A DNA stretch of 64,000 bases, taken from positions 82,095-146,094 of the forward strand of contig JBEKNE010000001.1 in NCBI GenBank assembly GCA_049523135.1, in the 5' to 3' direction. Numbering within the stretch: the stretch's first letter is position 1; every line of letters starts with the position of its first letter. Position numbers and translations under genes: made by a program. The notes under the pieces were generated by a model that saw only the letters and a program-made list of their open reading frames with translations, searched no databases and was not told the origin of the DNA. The stretch comes from Candidatus Microgenomates bacterium. GTDB taxonomy: Bacteria; Patescibacteriota; Microgenomatia; UBA8517. Positions 1,171 through 8,170 of the stretch are shown here, in pieces.

Positions 1171-1242
1171 TGCCTCCTGTGAGAATTGAACTCACATCAA
1201 TGGTTCCGGAAACCATTACTTTATCCGTTAAGCTAAGGAGGC
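1171..1242 (-). tRNA. tRNA-Arg (anticodon CCG)
   Basis: The rc reads GCCTCCTTAGCTTAACGGATAAAGTA-ATGGT-TTCCGGA-ACCAT-TGAT-GTGAGTTCAATTCTCAC-AGGAGGC-A. This forms a cloverleaf with U33 and A37. Confidence 0.8.
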
Positions 1243-1746
1243 CAAAAGCTTTTGGGCGTCTCTGGTTACCTGTTTCTCACCTGAAAAACTTAATTTCTTA
1301 ACAGCATCGTAAATTGGAAGCCATGCAACTTCTGATGTTTCATCATCATATCCTTCAGGCAGGTCTTTTTGCCACTCCATTAAATAAAAAGTTGCAAATT
1401 TTAGAATTTTACCTCTGACCGGATGTGTAAACGAATATTTAATCGTTCCAATTTTTTTAATAATTTTTGCCTCAATTCCGCCTTCTTCGGAAACTTCTCT
1501 AATTGCCGCTTTTTGGAGAGAATCTTCATCAGCTCTAACTTTTCCTGAAGCCATTGGACCGGGTTCATCATCTTCCGTATCATCAATTCTGCCCTTAGGA
1601 AGCATCCAATATGGTTTTGGGTAAAGATCGCTGGATGTTGTTTTCCTGATAAGCCAAAGAGCTTCCCCTTTTTCTTTTTTGAAAACAACTCCCCCCGAAG
1701 AAAACTCGCGGGTTAATATAACTTTATTTTGTGTGTCTTTTCCCAC
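1228..1746 (-). CDS. NUDIX hydrolase
   Basis: Nudix box GKVRADEDSLQKAAIREVSEEGGIEA (GX5EX7REUXEEXGU). Last codons overlap the 5' end of tRNA-Arg. Confidence 0.75.
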   Translation of the reverse strand: MGKDTQNKVILTREFSSGGVVFKKEKGEALWLIRKTTSSDLYPKPYWMLPKGRIDDTEDDEPGPMASGKVRADEDSLQKAAIREVSEEGGIEAKIIKKIGTIKYSFTHPVRGKILKFATFYLMEWQKDLPEGYDDETSEVAWLPIYDAVKKLSFSGEKQVTRDAQKLLASLA

Positions 1747-2165
1747 TCTTTTAAAACCTCCCGGGCTGATTTAAACATATCCTTTTCCCTTTTAAGAATA
1801 ACTTTTTTTACTGCATCTCCGTATTCCACCCACTTAAAGTCATAAAAACCGATAAGTTCGCTTGACCCTCCTTTTTGAAGCATTAAGTAATAATAATATT
1901 TTTGGGAAACAGATTTCCCACTTATAATAGCCGTTCCCGCACTTCTGCCTGCCTCTTCCAAAACTCTGGTGCTCATTCCCCCCTGCTCGCTTGTAAGTCG
2001 TATAACTGACCGGACTGAGGATTCACCGCGTCTTACTGTAACTTTTGGAATTTCCCAGTCACCGTCTTCCTTTGTTTTTACCAGCAAAAACTGGCGCCTG
2101 CCACGGTTATCTCTAAAAACTATGGCTCCGCCGATTGAAACTTGTTGGTTATTTTTATTGATCAT
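1713..2165 (-). CDS. NUDIX-like hydrolase (second, divergent copy)
   Basis: Nudix-box-like GESSVRSVIRLTSEQGGMSTRVLEEAGRS. Adjacent to and overlapping the preceding NUDIX gene. Confidence 0.45.
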   Translation of the reverse strand: MINKNNQQVSIGGAIVFRDNRGRRQFLLVKTKEDGDWEIPKVTVRRGESSVRSVIRLTSEQGGMSTRVLEEAGRSAGTAIISGKSVSQKYYYYLMLQKGGSSELIGFYDFKWVEYGDAVKKVILKREKDMFKSAREVLKEWEKTHKIKLY

Positions 2166-2988: not shown

Positions 2989-3075
2989 GGAGGATATGCC
3001 GAGCGGCTAAGGCGATGGTTCGCTAAACCATGTCGCGCAAGCGACCGGTGGGTTCGACTCCCTCATCCTCCGCCA
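2989..3075 (+). tRNA. tRNA-Ser (anticodon GCT), type II, CCA encoded
   Basis: GGAGGAT...ATGGT-TCGCTAA-ACCAT-GTCGCGCAAGCGAC...GGGTTCGACTCCC-ATCCTCC-G-CCA. Position 33 is C rather than U. Confidence 0.75.
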
Positions 3076-3096
3076 ATACGAAATCCATTTCGACAA

Positions 3097-3178
3097 GGTG
3101 GGCGGGCAGGACGGTAATGCGCGGGTCTTGAAAACCCGTGGGAGCAATCCCTAACAGGTTCGACCCCTGTGCCCACCG
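3097..3178 (+). tRNA. tRNA-Ser (anticodon TGA), type II
   Basis: GGTGGGC...CGGGT-CTTGAAA-ACCCG-TGGGAGCAATCCCTA-ACAGGTTCGACCCCTGT-GCCCACC-G. Confidence 0.75.
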
Positions 3179-3214
3179 CATACACACTTTGTATCAAAAG
3201 ATTAATATAAATAT

Positions 3215-4094: not shown

Positions 4095-4913
4095 ATGTTT
4101 GACAAGTATCTAGCAACACCGACTGATTTCAAGGCTGTCACCGAAGCGCTAGGGTTCGTTATGAACCCCAAAATGGAATTTGTTTTCGAAGACAAATCAA
4201 AAATAGCAAATACGGTAATAGTTTCTTACGACAGTAAGTTTATTTATATATGGAAACTCAAACCTATAAAACTTAAATATCAAATTCCGCACAATCTTAA
4301 AATTCCCGATGAATGGCAAAGCGGCTGGTGGGCGACACTTATTTTGGATGATATTGCAAAACTAATACCAGATCTAAAGGATAAACCTGTGATAAATGGT
4401 GGTTTACTAACTCCATTTATTGAACTGCAAAAACGGAAAGATATAAAAGAAAATCCGTATGTTACAAAAGAATCATACTTTGCAACAATAATTCATGAAC
4501 TGGGCCACATTTACTGGAATAGTTTCAAACTTTGGTGGCCGTCAAACAAAAAAGAGAATATTCTGACCCTCAAAGAAGCCGAAAAACTATTCAAAACCCC
4601 AAAAATGATAACTGAAAAGGTTATCCAATTTCCCAGCCCTTTGTATTTGGGGGAAGTCTTCGCGTCTTGCGCGGAATACTATGCGAGTTCAATTTTCTGG
4701 CCAAGTCATAAAGAAAACTTTGATAACTTTGCGAAAATCAAAATCAAAACAATATTGGAGTTTGAAAAAGTCAAAAATCTCAATACCGACGACTCTGTTA
4801 TAGAGCCGACAAAATACCAACACACATACGCATTAGTTGCAACAAAGCTTTTAATTTCCAAATACCCCAATACTTGGCCAGGTATCTTAACTAAACATCA
4901 AGCACTTGCTTAA
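4095..4913 (+). CDS. hypothetical HExxH-motif protein (putative zinc metallopeptidase)
   Basis: HExxH motif in ...ATIIHELGHIYWN... No signal peptide. Convergent with the rSAM/peptide module. Confidence 0.45.
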   Translation: MFDKYLATPTDFKAVTEALGFVMNPKMEFVFEDKSKIANTVIVSYDSKFIYIWKLKPIKLKYQIPHNLKIPDEWQSGWWATLILDDIAKLIPDLKDKPVINGGLLTPFIELQKRKDIKENPYVTKESYFATIIHELGHIYWNSFKLWWPSNKKENILTLKEAEKLFKTPKMITEKVIQFPSPLYLGEVFASCAEYYASSIFWPSHKENFDNFAKIKIKTILEFEKVKNLNTDDSVIEPTKYQHTYALVATKLLISKYPNTWPGILTKHQALA

Positions 4914-4922
4914 CCAGAAGGG

Positions 4923-5120
4923 TCATCTCCCTGTGGGATAACAGCCGAGCATATCTGGACCACAAGGCCTAAGCGCTGGTGCACAGTTAAATGGATTGCA
5001 ATCTGTATTGGGGTTGCAAGCCGCATTTGGTGGACAATCTGCTGGTGAGCAACTGTTCGTAGATAGTACCACTGGCGTAACTAAGATTATTTCTGGTTCT
5101 TCTGTTCTTTCAGTTTTCAT
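4923..5120 (-). CDS. Cys-rich RiPP precursor-like peptide (65 aa from ATG, 7 Cys in the C-terminal half)
   Basis: MKTERTEEPEIILVTPVVLSTNSCSPADCPPNAACNPNTDCNPFNCAPALRPCGPDMLGCYPTGR. There is an SD-like GAAGGTGA 7 nt upstream. The start overlaps the stop of the upstream rSAM gene. The ORF-track version starts at GTG 5129. Confidence 0.55.
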   Translation of the reverse strand: MKTERTEEPEIILVTPVVLSTNSCSPADCPPNAACNPNTDCNPFNCAPALRPCGPDMLGCYPTGR

Positions 5121-6531
5121 TATTCTCACCTTCTTTCTGAATAAACTCTTCTATTGTTGGTCTTAATGTTTCATCATAAAAATGTTCACCGATTTCATTT
5201 ACTCTCCAGACTCCTTTTGCCCATTCACCTGTATATGGATTGTATGTACATCTTGGGTATGGAGACGTAAGATATTCTCCATTTCCTTGGTTTAGACCCT
5301 CGGAAAGTGGGCGACAATCAAAGCAGGCATATCTATATTCACAATTCTGACAAACCAACACATTATCCTTTGTACTTCTCCAAATTGTATCAAGTTTATT
5401 TCCGGAAACTATTTCTTCAAGTGTTGTTTCTTTGATATTGCCAACTGCTAGATTTCTTGAAAAAATGCATGGCAATACATCTCCATTATTTGTAATGGTA
5501 ATTTTTCCCATTAAACAGGGGTGTCCGGAAATATTTCTTGATAAATTGTCTTTAGTAATTGAAAAGCTTGGTGATAACATAAGACTATATTTCACAACTG
5601 ATTCCTTAGTCGGCATTATTGAAGGATTGTCCCCTCTCCCTTTAGGTCTCAAAACATCTGGATGTTTATGAGAAAAACCCATTGTTTCCACGAACTTCTG
5701 AGTCTGGTTAATTGTCTCTTCATTCGGACGCATCAGTACAGTCTCAACTCTAACGGGGACACCAGCATCTTGCAAAAGCTTTAACGCCTCCATTGTCTTC
5801 CTAAAGCTACCTGGAGTTTTTGTTATTGAATCATGTATGCCTTCATCATTCGAATATAGCGATACGGCAACATTTAAACCGAGTGCTTTAATCTTTTGAA
5901 CCTTTTCTGGCGTAAGTAATGTGGCATTTGTGAATATCTCAATAAATTCAAAACCGACGGCCTTTGCGTATTCGGCAAGATCGAATACAGTTTCTTTATT
6001 TTCGGCTCTATAAAGCAGCGGTTCGCCTCCGATAAATTGGCATCTCCGACATCCCAAAGAATATGATTCATCAATCAGATGCTTCCATCTCTCAAAAGAA
6101 ATCTTTTTATTACTTTCCTGCCCAAGATCATTAACTTTACCGTTTTCAGTTGGGAAACCCATTGCTTTTCTGTAAGTCGGCGGCATACATTCTGCATAAC
6201 AATGGATACAACTTTCATTGCAATCGTCAGAAATGATTTCAAACCAAACAAATTGCAGAGAAGGATTTTGCAGGAGCTCTGGAAGCGTTCTTTTTCCATC
6301 GTTTTTTTCTTTGGCCACTAAGTTCATCGATTCGAGTTTTTTCCAAAACTCAGGGTTTTCGGTTGTTCCTGTCAAAATATCGCAGGCAGATTGGTTAATT
6401 GAATAAACATTAGAAGAATTCAAATCATAAATTGCTCCTCTTAGTACTCCGGGGACGAAGAAGACACTATTCTTAAACATGTATTCACCTGAAGATAAAT
6501 GCTCTTTAATATCCAGGCTACGTTCTTTCAT
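5110..6531 (-). CDS. radical SAM / SPASM-domain peptide-modifying enzyme
   Basis: CxxxCxxC in ...DDCNESCIHCYAEC... A C-terminal Cys-rich SPASM-like region reads ...CLMGKITITNNGDVLPC...CQNCEYRYACFDCRP... Confidence 0.8.
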   Translation of the reverse strand: MKERSLDIKEHLSSGEYMFKNSVFFVPGVLRGAIYDLNSSNVYSINQSACDILTGTTENPEFWKKLESMNLVAKEKNDGKRTLPELLQNPSLQFVWFEIISDDCNESCIHCYAECMPPTYRKAMGFPTENGKVNDLGQESNKKISFERWKHLIDESYSLGCRRCQFIGGEPLLYRAENKETVFDLAEYAKAVGFEFIEIFTNATLLTPEKVQKIKALGLNVAVSLYSNDEGIHDSITKTPGSFRKTMEALKLLQDAGVPVRVETVLMRPNEETINQTQKFVETMGFSHKHPDVLRPKGRGDNPSIMPTKESVVKYSLMLSPSFSITKDNLSRNISGHPCLMGKITITNNGDVLPCIFSRNLAVGNIKETTLEEIVSGNKLDTIWRSTKDNVLVCQNCEYRYACFDCRPLSEGLNQGNGEYLTSPYPRCTYNPYTGEWAKGVWRVNEIGEHFYDETLRPTIEEFIQKEGENNEN

Positions 6532-6663
6532 CGTCGCGCTGAATATAGGCTAGAAATGTTTAGTTGTCAAGTAATCCATTGATGTTATCAGAACCACTCG
6601 TGAACAACGTCAGAACTTTAACCTCGAACTTTTGATACTTCGTGCCTAAACCAATCTAAAAAA

Positions 6664-6754
6664 GTGGAAAGCTATAAACGATGTTAGAACCTACTACACT
6701 CAACTCCAAGGGCATTGTTATATCCTGTGCTTCAGTAATTAGCCCTAAAAATTC
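6664..6754 (+). repeat. intergenic repeat element, copy B
   Basis: Matches copy A (3952-4050): gtggaaagctataaacgatgttagaacctactacactcaactccaag. Confidence 0.45.
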
Positions 6755-6931
6755 TTTCGGTGTGCAATGCCTGCACGGCCATGTGTGGGTCAAGTGCCAT
6801 TAAAAATACCCGAGACTCTCGATGGAACCAAATGTGGAGTAAAACAATACGCTGATTCAGGTGTAGATACTTGGAACCACACCACAAATTATTACCCAGA
6901 AGGTTAATATCTAACGAAGCATATAAACAGG

Positions 6932-7519
6932 CTAACTACAACACGTTTCGCAGCAACAGCCATAACCCGAACCGGACGATGATGATGCTTCATGGCTATG
7001 CCTCTGTGGTTCGAGATATGCATCATCAATTGCTTTTTCTATCTTTCTATTATCGTGTAGTGAAAAGGTTCCAAAAACACGTGCTCCTATAACTGTAAGG
7101 GTTTCTTTATCGGGGTTTACGCCTACTTCTATTACAGAGAAAGAATAGTCGCCCGAGCCAGAAAAACCACCATCAGATTTTGAATGATAACCCGTACCCC
7201 ATGCAAGACTTATTTTCCCATTTTCCGGTGAATAATTCAGATCATGATTGCCTACATTTCCCTCAAGTAGGTCCTTGTCTATCTGACGAAGTTCATCAAT
7301 TGCCTTACTTTCCGTCAAGACTTTTTCGGTTTGATTTATAACAAATTGTATTCTTTTTTCCGCAGCTTCTTTTGCAAGCCTCAACTGTTCCTCCCTCTCT
7401 CTTCTAGCATTCTCCTCGGTGACTCTCCTATTTTCCTCTGCTTGAAGCCTCTCTTGATCTTGTTGTCTAAGCCTTTCTTTAATTTCTTCCGTAGACATAT
7501 TTACATTATATAATACCAA
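6932..7519 (-). CDS. charged coiled-coil protein with Ser/Gly/Cys-rich C-terminal tail (possible YcaO/SagB substrate)
   Basis: Ends ...QRHSHEASSSSGSGYGCCCETCCS. The N-terminal ~80 aa is E/R/K/Q-rich and predicted helical. The ORF-track start is TTG; an in-frame ATG at 7498 gives MSTEEIKERL. Confidence 0.5.
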   Translation of the reverse strand: MVLYNVNMSTEEIKERLRQQDQERLQAEENRRVTEENARREREEQLRLAKEAAEKRIQFVINQTEKVLTESKAIDELRQIDKDLLEGNVGNHDLNYSPENGKISLAWGTGYHSKSDGGFSGSGDYSFSVIEVGVNPDKETLTVIGARVFGTFSLHDNRKIEKAIDDAYLEPQRHSHEASSSSGSGYGCCCETCCS

Positions 7520-7531
7520 AGGCGGCTCAGG

Positions 7532-8170
7532 TCAAGAACCCAGAGCAACATAATAAATTGGATATTCTTCTCTGGCGTTTATATCCAAAAGTTGAATTAT
7601 TTGTTTCTCGTGTAGTCCGCCAATTGCGCAACAACCCAATCCGACGGAGCCTGCAGTAAGATAAACATTTTGCACAAGATGGCCAGCTTCAATATACGGG
7701 AAAACCATCCCTTTATTCTTATATTTATCCGTAGTTCTGTGGAAAGTGGCAGTAATTATTAGCAGTACTGCTGCCTTTTTAAACCAAGGTTGGGTTTTTA
7801 TCCAAATCAAATCAGTTTCTTTCTTTTTAACTTCTTGATTTAATATATCGAGATTATTGTTTACCGGATTGTAATGATACAATCCCGGCACTATCTCTTT
7901 GCTAAAAAGGATTAAGGGATATATCTCGAGAGGGTATTTAGCACCCGCAGACGGATAAGCCCGAAAGGATTTATCCTCATCAATTTTATTTTGCCTAGTT
8001 ATACCTGCACTGTAATACAAAATCTCTGAAAGTACATTTTTTGTTATTGGCTTACCTGTAAACTCTCTAAAAGATGAACGCTTTTTTATCAAGTCATGAA
8101 GCCCGTTTTTTCTTGATTTAATACTTAAACTAATCTTTGGTAATCTCGGATATTGTTTATGCATTGTCAA
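7532..8170 (-). CDS. SagB-type (McbC-like) FMN-dependent dehydrogenase, nitroreductase superfamily
   Basis: Hallmark ...FRAYPSAGAKYPLEIYP... The start overlaps the YcaO stop by 4 nt (ATGA coupling). Confidence 0.75.
   Translation of the reverse strand: MTMHKQYPRLPKISLSIKSRKNGLHDLIKKRSSFREFTGKPITKNVLSEILYYSAGITRQNKIDEDKSFRAYPSAGAKYPLEIYPLILFSKEIVPGLYHYNPVNNNLDILNQEVKKKETDLIWIKTQPWFKKAAVLLIITATFHRTTDKYKNKGMVFPYIEAGHLVQNVYLTAGSVGLGCCAIGGLHEKQIIQLLDINAREEYPIYYVALGS

Follow-up and report, generated by a model that had tools for sequence, protein, structure and literature searches.

A radical SAM/SPASM enzyme and an adjoining Cys-x-Pro-repeat peptide: a candidate RiPP-type cassette in Patescibacteria with relatives in distant bacteria and archaea

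Introduction

At one locus in a Candidatus Microgenomates genome, the gene for a radical SAM/SPASM enzyme overlaps a small open reading frame (ORF) encoding a Cys-rich peptide. Is this peptide the substrate of the enzyme, and what would the enzyme do to it? The window (the whole stretch of DNA analysed, 64,000 nucleotides) was compared with 80 related loci. The main reading, to which we give a probability of roughly 0.6, is a self-contained RiPP-type cassette in which a leader-guided radical SAM/SPASM maturase acts on each Cys-x-Pro (CxP) unit of the peptide. That the CxP peptide is the substrate of the enzyme is very likely, and the modification is probably centred on the CxP unit.

Results

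The features of the cassette were located as follows (coordinates in the window, strand in brackets, basis at the end of each line).

4095..4913 (+): HExxH protein, 272 aa, convergent, putative leader peptidase; ORF
4494..4508 (+): HELGH motif of the HExxH protein; sequence, invariant in alignment
4923..5120 (-): precursor-like peptide with CxP repeats, 65 aa, coordinates including the stop codon; ORF and homologous loci
4926..5051 (-): core of the peptide, aa 24-65, units CSP, CPP, CNP, CNP, CAP, CGP, CYP; sequence and shuffles
5079..5096 (-): leader motif P9-E-I-I-L-V14; motif recurrence in candidate precursors
5110..6531 (-): candidate peptide maturase of the radical SAM/SPASM type, 473 aa; ORF and Pfam
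5126..5132 (-): Shine-Dalgarno-like AAGGTGA, within the terminal part of the enzyme gene; sequence reading
5248..5517 (-): SPASM region, 7 invariant Cys; Pfam SPASM and alignment
6199..6222 (-): CxxxCxxC radical SAM cluster motif (C104, C108, C111); invariant in homologue alignments
6247..6531 (-): N-terminal domain, aa 1 to ~95, candidate leader-recognition element; AlphaFold model and conservation
6542..6570 (-): sigma-70-like promoter match TTGACA-17-TATATT, 11/12, directly upstream of the enzyme gene; consensus match

The enzyme TGA (5112-5110) and the peptide ATG (5120-5118) lie in an 11-nt overlap, ATGAAAACTGA, and AAGGTGA is separated from the peptide ATG by 5 nt. The first-pass annotation had described a 473-aa enzyme with the motif CNESCIHCY whose stop overlaps the start of a 65-aa ORF with a good Shine-Dalgarno sequence. 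This description was borne out, and its coordinates, features and quoted peptide sequence were all correct; the minus strand of the enzyme and the small ORF had been left unstated. The small ORF is 65 aa long from the ATG and 68 aa from a GTG further upstream. The 65-aa form was picked by independent gene callers, and an identical 65-aa product is present in public assemblies. The enzyme and peptide genes would be co-transcribed and translationally coupled. The promoter upstream is a consensus match only, such sites being no more frequent in the region than expected from shuffled sequence. The stop codons of the peptide and the HExxH gene are 9 nt apart. Closer inspection of eight Patescibacteria loci showed nothing in common beyond the enzyme, the peptide and the HExxH gene, and each locus had different flanking genes. 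No conserved exporter was found near the enzyme among the loci compared.

Pfam placed the enzyme in the radical SAM superfamily (PF04055, 72 bits, cutoff 29.5, 8.3e-20) and in the SPASM subfamily (PF13186, 39 bits, cutoff 21.5, 9.1e-10), in agreement with the C-terminal multi-Cys SPASM-like region noted earlier. C339, C355, C394, C397, C403, C406 and C428 were invariant in the alignment from Patescibacteria to archaea, in a pattern that includes G350-x4-C355 and C-x2-C-x5-C-x2-C. An eighth conserved SPASM Cys was not found in the cross-phylum alignment; with seven in place of eight, one of the auxiliary clusters would have an open site, as in CteB. Grove et al. 2017 are said to have described such an open-site auxiliary cluster in CteB (PDB 5WGG), at which the substrate Cys binds. 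Relatives of the enzyme were present in 145 species-representative genomes, and 393 clusters at 50% identity matched it at E<=1e-30.

Among the best 25 of 62 NCBIfam matches, no cutoff was reached and no ranthipeptide-maturase model appeared. The assignment by profile models that had been suggested as a check therefore gave a SPASM domain above its Pfam cutoff and every NCBIfam model below its own. The top scores for the catalytic core were those of AhbD (111 bits) and NirJ2 (104 bits), both with cutoffs of 500. StsB gave the sole near-full-length alignment among the best 25 of 62 (aa 87-403, 84 bits, cutoff 625). The AlbA model scored 60 bits with the window enzyme (cutoff 850), which falls short of a sactipeptide maturase assignment, and SkfB scored 64-70 bits (cutoff 300) with Negativicutes homologs only. 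The model for anaerobic sulfatase-maturing enzymes (anSME, TIGR03942) scored 43 bits (cutoff 349), lower than many peptide-maturase models. The closest solved folds in Foldseek were SkfB (top), TigE, SuiB and CteB, aligned over almost the whole length, with at most 16% identity to the top-ranked solved peptide-maturase structures; anSMEcpe was also a structural match (E ~1e-9). No sactipeptide or ranthipeptide family cutoff was reached, and for the enzyme-peptide pair the earlier label 'ranthipeptide/sactipeptide-type' is kept as a working hypothesis only. These two product classes differ in the acceptor carbon to which the Cys sulfur is joined, alpha in sactipeptides and beta or gamma in ranthipeptides.

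The ~95-aa N-terminal extension was modelled by AlphaFold as strands at 17-19, 23-27, 32-36 and 41-45 followed by helices at 47-53 and 60-68 (pLDDT ~80-92). G28, L66 and other residues of the domain were kept across phyla in the alignment. All of the top structural matches of the enzyme possess a three-strand, three-helix leader-binding-type domain. A PqqD-like match to the domain was found neither in Pfam (three homologs, E<=10) nor with a profile against PDB sequences. The idea that this extension is a recognition domain, raised in the first-pass annotation, gains from its conservation and its strands-then-helices model, but not from sequence models, which detect no such domain. In the proposed cassette the domain would bind the leader motif of the peptide (PEIILV here).

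All seven Cys of the window peptide are followed by x-Pro. Shuffling the core 200,000 times never gave seven CxP units, and of the 665 stop-free segments in the window with a length of at least 40 aa, no other holds five or more CxP. The Cys spacing reported earlier (C-x4-C-x5-C-x5-C-x4-C-x6-C-x6-C) is correct; as a signature it had missed Cys-x-Pro, which is the real one. A search of related genomes, also suggested earlier, found a CxP-repeat ORF adjoining the enzyme relative in 73 of 80, and established it as a conserved partner of the enzyme homologs. Because of this conservation, the outcome that would have overturned the earlier reading (an unconserved small ORF beside an enzyme of a sulfatase-maturing or cofactor family) was not the one obtained. 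Taxa with both enzyme and CxP ORF comprised Patescibacteria, Chloroflexota, Negativicutes, Bacteroidota and archaea.

The candidate peptides lie directly 3' of the enzyme on the same strand in 45 of 63 cases; in archaea and some Bacillota, a CxP ORF lies directly upstream of the enzyme. Some loci carry several precursors (L021, L079), and more than one precursor per locus is usual in such systems. The CxP rule was obeyed by 558 of the 578 Cys in candidate precursors, a count made on ORFs pre-selected for at least three CxP; an unbiased list of small downstream ORFs gave the same peptides. Conservation in the cores is limited to Cys and Pro(+2). Any residue is accepted at +1, Cys-to-Cys spacing ranges from 3 to 9, and at +4 Gln (23%), Cys (16%) and Arg (6%) were counted, so that Arg is not conserved. 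The shortest minimal unit is CSPCGP (L016, L022). The archaeal peptides are 120-160 aa long and have a C-terminal tail with sequence suggestive of a coiled coil.

Of 73 candidate precursors, 52 carry a leader motif, P-[ET]-[ILM]-x-[LED]-[VW] or a close variant, which stands 7-32 aa ahead of the first Cys; this pattern (short form P-[ET]-[ILM]-x-x-[VW]) was written after the data were seen. It is common to Patescibacteria, Chloroflexota, archaea and Negativicutes. A small adjoining ORF, a conserved leader and a hypervariable core together make the peptide a RiPP precursor in the generic sense, its modification being putative. CxP peptides from several phyla matched no Pfam or NCBIfam family.

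The HExxH protein stands beside the enzyme in 20 Patescibacteria loci, and a second HExxH family takes its place in seven more. No similarity between the two families was detectable by profile comparison (probability 0.1), and on sequence they are treated as analogous rather than related. Neither matches a Pfam or NCBIfam family. In the alignment of the HExxH protein H134, E135, H138 and E187 are invariant; its 80 homologs are all unnamed. Among the loci compared, those outside Patescibacteria lack the protein. Its earlier designation as a candidate leader peptidase is strengthened by its place as a conserved neighbour in 20 loci, but a protease fold was not confirmed by structure searches. 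Zincin metallopeptidases bear the HExxH on a helix, together with a third zinc ligand and the zincin fold. The odds are about even that it is a leader peptidase, which would remove the leader of the CxP peptide in Patescibacteria.

Discussion

The ranthipeptide maturases (CteB/SCIFF; PapB/freyrasin) resemble the enzyme in combining an N-terminal recognition domain (putative here), a radical SAM core and a SPASM region, and their Cys-rich precursor genes likewise adjoin the enzyme gene. CteB ranks with the best structural matches, and PapB acts repeatedly on short Cys-containing units (CX3D), as is proposed here. In contrast to ranthipeptides, the CxP units lack a conserved acceptor of the Asp, Asn or Thr kind, and the leader motif differs. 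Sactipeptide maturases are matched through StsB (near full length), AlbA and the SkfB fold, and by analogy with sactipeptides Cys would be the sulfur donor in CxP peptides; the scores, however, are 84 against 625 bits (StsB) and 60 against 850 bits (AlbA), and tandem CxP repeats stand in place of a hairpin pattern of Cys donors and acceptors.

The anSMEs are also SPASM radical SAM enzymes, with a substrate motif that starts Cys-x-Pro. Here a dedicated repeat peptide with a leader replaces the sulfatase, only the Cys-x-Pro of the motif is present, no sulfatase gene is nearby, and the enzyme family differs by an additional domain at the N-terminus and by one conserved Cys fewer. The ACGX-repeat system (TIGR04340/TIGR04341) likewise pairs a SPASM enzyme with short tandem Cys-containing units; its unit is ACGX rather than CxP, and the enzyme scored 48-75 bits against a cutoff of 400. 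ACGX and other SPASM cassettes were reportedly defined by Haft through computation alone, and they occur patchily, in anaerobes and archaea among others. For the C-terminal SPASM part, the Grasp-with-SPASM maturase TIGR04193 scored best (86 bits, and up to 131 with an archaeal homolog). All of its scores were below the cutoff of 175, the C-terminal third alone aligned, and no ATP-grasp protein was among the recurrent neighbour families or adjoined the enzyme in the window.

Two further genes of the window lie upstream of the enzyme on the same strand.

7532-8170 (-): SagB dehydrogenase
8167-9513 (-): YcaO cyclodehydratase

With YcaO, SagB and the enzyme co-stranded within 3 kb, the CxP peptide might belong to a hybrid cluster in which its Cys become thiazoles and the radical SAM enzyme adds a step. 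The comparative context largely refutes this arrangement, which we consider highly improbable. No YcaO or SagB homolog was found near the enzyme in any of the 80 related loci, the window being the only one of 81 loci with them; a thiazole/oxazole system would predict such co-occurrence for the CxP peptide. The YcaO-SagB pair has a precursor-like ORF of its own, ending GCCCETCCS, and the trio recurs on another contig without a radical SAM enzyme. A terminator-like site and a near-consensus promoter separate the two cassettes. The YcaO/SagB cassette is independent of the enzyme-peptide cassette. A still more remote alternative, in which the small ORF is a chance frame and the enzyme an AhbD/NirJ-type cofactor-biosynthesis protein, draws on the AhbD and NirJ2 models being the top scorers for the catalytic core. 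Both models fall well short of their cutoffs of 500, no heme or siroheme pathway genes are nearby, and the ORF, which obeys a strict residue rule, recurs across phyla in 73 of 80 loci; conservation and sub-cutoff scores together refute it.

In the RiPP-type cassette that we favour, the radical SAM/SPASM core would act repeatedly, once per CxP unit, each Cys most likely being converted to a sulfur-to-carbon thioether. Pro(+2) would be the acceptor, or a turn that positions the unit. SPASM enzymes of such kind form C-alpha, C-beta or C-gamma thioethers (PMC10114670). By analogy with these, we would put the thioether at slightly less than an even chance. The CxP cores hold no conserved acceptor residue other than Pro, which weighs against it. 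We know of no reported thioether to proline. With a minimal unit of CSPCGP, thioethers would need very small rings or links between units.

The main rival chemistry is oxidation of the sulfatase-maturing type, since the sulfatase motif has CxP at its core. [quoted passage not shown] Cys-x-Pro is the first half of C/S-x-P/A-x-R, and literature matches to 'Cys-X-Pro' all concern sulfatases; the second half is not kept, as the frequencies at +4 indicate. That Cys and Pro are the sole invariant core residues fits a Pro-directed change of Cys itself. The anSMEs have 8 SPASM Cys and are not known to carry an N-terminal leader-binding-like domain; in the CxP enzyme family there are 7, and such a domain is predicted. 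As members of the SPASM group, the anSMEs take a hydrogen from C-beta (PMC10114670). The structural match to anSMEcpe speaks for such oxidation, and the score of the anSME model, lower than that of many peptide-maturase models, speaks against it. On balance, we consider formylglycine-type oxidation unlikely. We give a similarly low chance to some other radical SAM reaction (epimerisation, a carbon-carbon link or a change to proline) with Cys left free or in disulfides, the peptide possibly being metal-binding or structural. SPASM enzymes catalyse many non-thioether reactions (PMC10114670), and TigE (cyclopropylglycine synthase) and SuiB (Lys-Trp link) are among the top structural matches. In Sporomusaceae the cassette has a fixed site beside tig-clpP-clpX-lon, which looks more housekeeping than antibiotic, and the archaeal versions, with their length and coiled-coil-like tail, are more protein-like. 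Such reactions sit poorly with Cys being invariant in every unit and with hypervariability at +1, which leaves only the Cys and Pro side chains available for a conserved reaction. To our knowledge, where a SPASM enzyme has a Cys-rich substrate, that substrate has nearly always turned out so far to be a thioether donor. The tig-clpP-clpX-lon genes were also considered as functional partners in Negativicutes and were judged to be lineage synteny of housekeeping genes.

Conservation of Cys and Pro only would constrain the reaction to something unusual for the enzyme class. A new chemistry per tripeptide unit, such as Cys-to-Pro thioether micro-rings or multiple formylglycines, is conceivable, although we think it somewhat less likely than not; it would define an undescribed class shared by Bacteria and Archaea, maybe among the commoner Patescibacteria systems. 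Literature searches for CxP motifs, core and leader strings, Patescibacteria or Negativicutes RiPPs and formylglycine RiPPs returned nothing on a CxP family. That bacteria and archaea so far apart share the enzyme-CxP pairing argues for a modified-peptide family that is widespread and is undescribed in the literature and databases searched.

An x-Pro after every Cys, behind a P-E/T-I-x-x-V/W leader, offers a handle for genome mining in a sizeable enzyme family (~390 clusters at 50% identity). For peptide engineering, a recognition unit the size of a tripeptide would be of use. The presence of the cassette in Patescibacteria genomes of ~1 Mb suggests a role important to the episymbiotic lifestyle, and cultured Negativicutes hosts (Sporomusa ovata, Pelosinus) make the CxP system directly testable. 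In Sporomusa ovata DSM 2662 the peptide of the pair is WP_021167151.1. At present, members of the enzyme family are annotated only as 'radical SAM protein' and their neighbours as 'hypothetical protein'.

Organization of the enzyme and peptide genes

Features around the enzyme gene (coordinates, strand, description)
4095..4913, plus: HExxH protein (272 aa), convergent ORF
4923..5120, minus: CxP peptide, 65-aa ORF
5110..6531, minus: radical SAM/SPASM enzyme, 473-aa ORF
6570..6542, minus: near-consensus (11/12) sigma-70-type promoter match directly 5' of the enzyme gene; consensus match only
6822..6810, minus: terminator-like hairpin farther 5' than the promoter match; consensus match only
6932..7519, minus: 188/195-aa ORF ending GCCCETCCS, next after the YcaO and SagB genes
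7532..8170, minus: SagB-type dehydrogenase, above NCBIfam cutoff
8167..9513, minus: YcaO/SagD cyclodehydratase, above NCBIfam cutoff

The radical SAM enzyme described in the first-pass annotation was recovered as a 473-aa ORF containing CNESCIHCY (C104, C108, C111). The 65-aa product was identical to the peptide quoted there and to that obtained by public gene callers. Both genes are on the minus strand. The overlap reported between them was confirmed: the enzyme TGA (5112-5110) and the peptide ATG (5120-5118) lie within ATGAAAACTGA, with a Shine-Dalgarno-like sequence (AAGGTGA) 5 nt 5' of the ATG. The HExxH ORF is convergent to the peptide gene as described, with 9 nt from stop to stop.

The Cys spacing of the peptide had been given correctly; its Cys-x-Pro (CxP) signature was absent from that annotation. 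Each of the seven Cys begins a CxP unit (CSP, CPP, CNP, CNP, CAP, CGP, CYP). Seven CxP units arose in 0 of 200,000 core shuffles, and of the 665 stop-free segments in the window the peptide alone had at least five. Peptides of the nearest relatives (loci L005, L012 and L020) have a Pro-rich tail and an eighth unit beyond ...CYPNGK (APEPPRPFPRPPCYPG); the window peptide ends at CYPTGR, 9 nt from the stop of the convergent gene.

CxP peptides across related loci

Searched with no word index, the library returned 393 enzyme representatives at E<=1e-30, and the family is mostly found in Patescibacteria (Woesebacteria, Roizmanbacteria, Amesbacteria, Levybacteria, Daviesbacteria). One genome per species was scanned, giving 145 matching stretches, from which 80 loci were kept. 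These represent Patescibacteria, WWE3, Saccharibacteria, Chloroflexota, Negativicutes (Pelosinus, Sporomusa, Lucifera, Dendrosporobacter), Latescibacterota, Elusimicrobia and Bacteroidota, together with archaea.

An unbiased list of every small ORF directly 3' of the enzyme contained Cys/Pro-rich ORFs in most loci. Candidates were defined by at least three CxP units, which gave 61 loci; a segment-based rescan added 12, with products that were longer or had unusual starts. A search for the peptide in related genomes had been proposed in the first-pass annotation; in all, 73 of 80 loci have a CxP candidate near the homologous enzyme. The remaining seven include truncated contigs and locus L001, where the ORF 3' of the enzyme has an EPTIELVT leader and two CxP units only.

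Over 63 peptides, x-Pro followed 558 of 578 Cys. Any residue was accepted at position +1 (W, R, F, N, S, Y, P, G and others); R, S, N, D or T was frequent at position +3 without being conserved, and Cys-to-Cys spacing was 3-9 (mode 5). Examples of cores are repeats of CWPRQQ and CFPRQ in Pelosinus and Sporomusaceae and of CRPCPPSQ in other Bacillota; Woesebacteria have CxPD/E units, and CSPCGPWGCRP comes from Chloroflexota. The leader motif P-[ET]-[ILM]-x-[LED]-[VW], a pattern written post hoc with the sequences already in view, was present in 52 of 73 candidates, 7-32 residues N-terminal to the first Cys (for example EPTIELVT, EPEIILVT, PKWxxPEMxxW, PEIVDW). Near-variants occurred in most of the others.

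Some loci differ in arrangement. L021 (Anaerolineales) has three or four CxP precursor genes and L079 has two, one encoding CWPWRGGGG repeats. Archaeal CxP proteins (L038, L060, L077) are 120-160 aa, encoded directly upstream of the enzyme, and have a C-terminal tail after the CxP region (e.g. ...LDKLTAEVEELKKKVGR) whose sequence suggests a coiled coil; these products look protein-like rather than like small secreted peptides. In L020 (Woesebacteria, 5992-7194) the enzyme homolog is broken into ORFs of 96 and 284 aa, a frameshift or pseudogene; the CxP peptide and HExxH genes are intact.

The CxP peptides matched no family in Pfam or NCBIfam and are labelled 'hypothetical protein' in NCBI records. 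No account of them was found in full-text literature, as covered by openly readable papers, so an earlier description is possible. The June 2026 NCBIfam release held no model for the enzyme, the CxP peptide or the HExxH protein. Leader-guided radical SAM/SPASM maturases paired with Cys-rich precursors are a well-known kind of system; the CxP-repeat family and its putative chemistry appear new.

HExxH protein and other neighbours

All ORFs from 81 loci were clustered. The HExxH protein, earlier put forward as a candidate leader peptidase, proved a recurrent neighbour: its gene is convergent with the cassette in 20 loci of Patescibacteria, and in seven more this position is filled by a second HExxH family. 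Profile comparison found no relation between the two families, and neither was present in loci outside Patescibacteria. In the inspected Patescibacteria loci the other flanking genes vary from locus to locus, so the enzyme, peptide and HExxH genes behave as a unit. The 80 homologs of the HExxH protein are all unnamed, and many share a contig with enzyme homologs. H134, E135, H138 and E187 are invariant, and the structure model is confident (pLDDT 86.6).

In Negativicutes the cassette adjoins tig, clpP, clpX and lon, which is taken to be lineage synteny. The enzyme-peptide pair of Sporomusaceae (L030-L079, Negativicutes loci) occupies a fixed site, with the genes for trigger factor, ClpP, ClpX and a Lon-like protease running divergently, and CxP unit number spreads widely between species (approximately 10 to 29).

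Enzyme family and putative chemistry

The enzyme matched Pfam Radical_SAM (8.3e-20) and SPASM (9.1e-10). No NCBIfam model reached its cutoff (score/cutoff: AhbD 111/500; NirJ2 104/500; TIGR04053 90/395; grasp-with-SPASM 86/175, C-terminal part only; StsB 84/625, aligned over nearly full length; AlbA 60/850; anSME 43/349), and the same was true of the Sporomusa, Pelosinus and Chloroflexota homologs and of one from an archaeon. Cross-phylum alignment kept all three Cys of the radical SAM motif, exactly seven in the SPASM region (C339, C355, C394, C397, C403, C406, C428) and much of the N-terminal domain. In the AlphaFold model (pLDDT 72.7) this domain is predicted to form strands (17-45) followed by helices (47-68). 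Foldseek placed the peptide maturases SkfB, TigE, SuiB and CteB at the top, with MoaA, BlsE and anSME lower. Sequence profiles detected no PqqD-like element, so assignment of the N-terminal domain as a candidate leader-recognition domain rests on predicted topology and analogy.

Beyond the established enzyme class, gene coupling, co-occurrence, CxP rule and leader motif, it is proposed that the N-terminal domain would bind the leader of the CxP peptide and that the catalytic core would work once per CxP unit. Conservation is confined to Cys and Pro(+2), and neighbouring units may touch without a spacer (CSPCGP), which places the reaction centre at the Cys, the Pro or the unit backbone. Thioether formation is favoured because the closest of the full-length models belong to sactipeptide maturases and because a SPASM region with seven Cys instead of eight would leave a cluster site open, as CteB does. 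A further reason is that Cys-rich substrates of leader-guided SPASM enzymes act as thioether donors (PMC10114670).

The leading alternative is that the enzyme oxidizes the CxP Cys to formylglycine in the manner of anSME, Cys-x-Pro being the core of the sulfatase motif (PMC10114670). However, the anSME score of the enzyme is weak (43/349), the CxP peptides lack Arg(+4) of that motif and the enzyme has an additional N-terminal domain. Reactions of another type, with the cysteine thiols left free, are possible.

Adjoining cassette and other features

The 188/195-aa ORF following the YcaO and SagB genes is conserved in its N-terminal region, where Glu, Arg and Lys are abundant, and has SSSSGSGYGCCCETCCS as its C-terminal tail; its 'leader' is unusually long for a thiazole/oxazole precursor. 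This trio is also present on another contig (L081) that lacks the radical SAM enzyme beside it, and YcaO/SagB genes were near the enzyme in 0 of 80 related loci; the window therefore holds two independent modified-peptide cassettes adjoining one another, the second at 6932-9513(-).

A 246-aa ORF (15229-15969(+)) with an N-terminal hydrophobic segment carries 20 Cys, arranged as repeats of the module DCGE.GQACCSP.F.C...C....C. Its product resembles secreted repeat proteins that are rich in Cys, and it does not obey the CxP rule. Two tRNA-Ser/tRNA-Arg pairs (1059-1242, 2181-2346) flank two short ORFs at 1228-2165(-), NUDIX-like as judged by eye, and two more tRNA-Ser genes lie at 2989-3179. The tmRNA (9745-10111) immediately adjoins a 144-aa ORF (10115-10549) taken, from its sequence, to be smpB.
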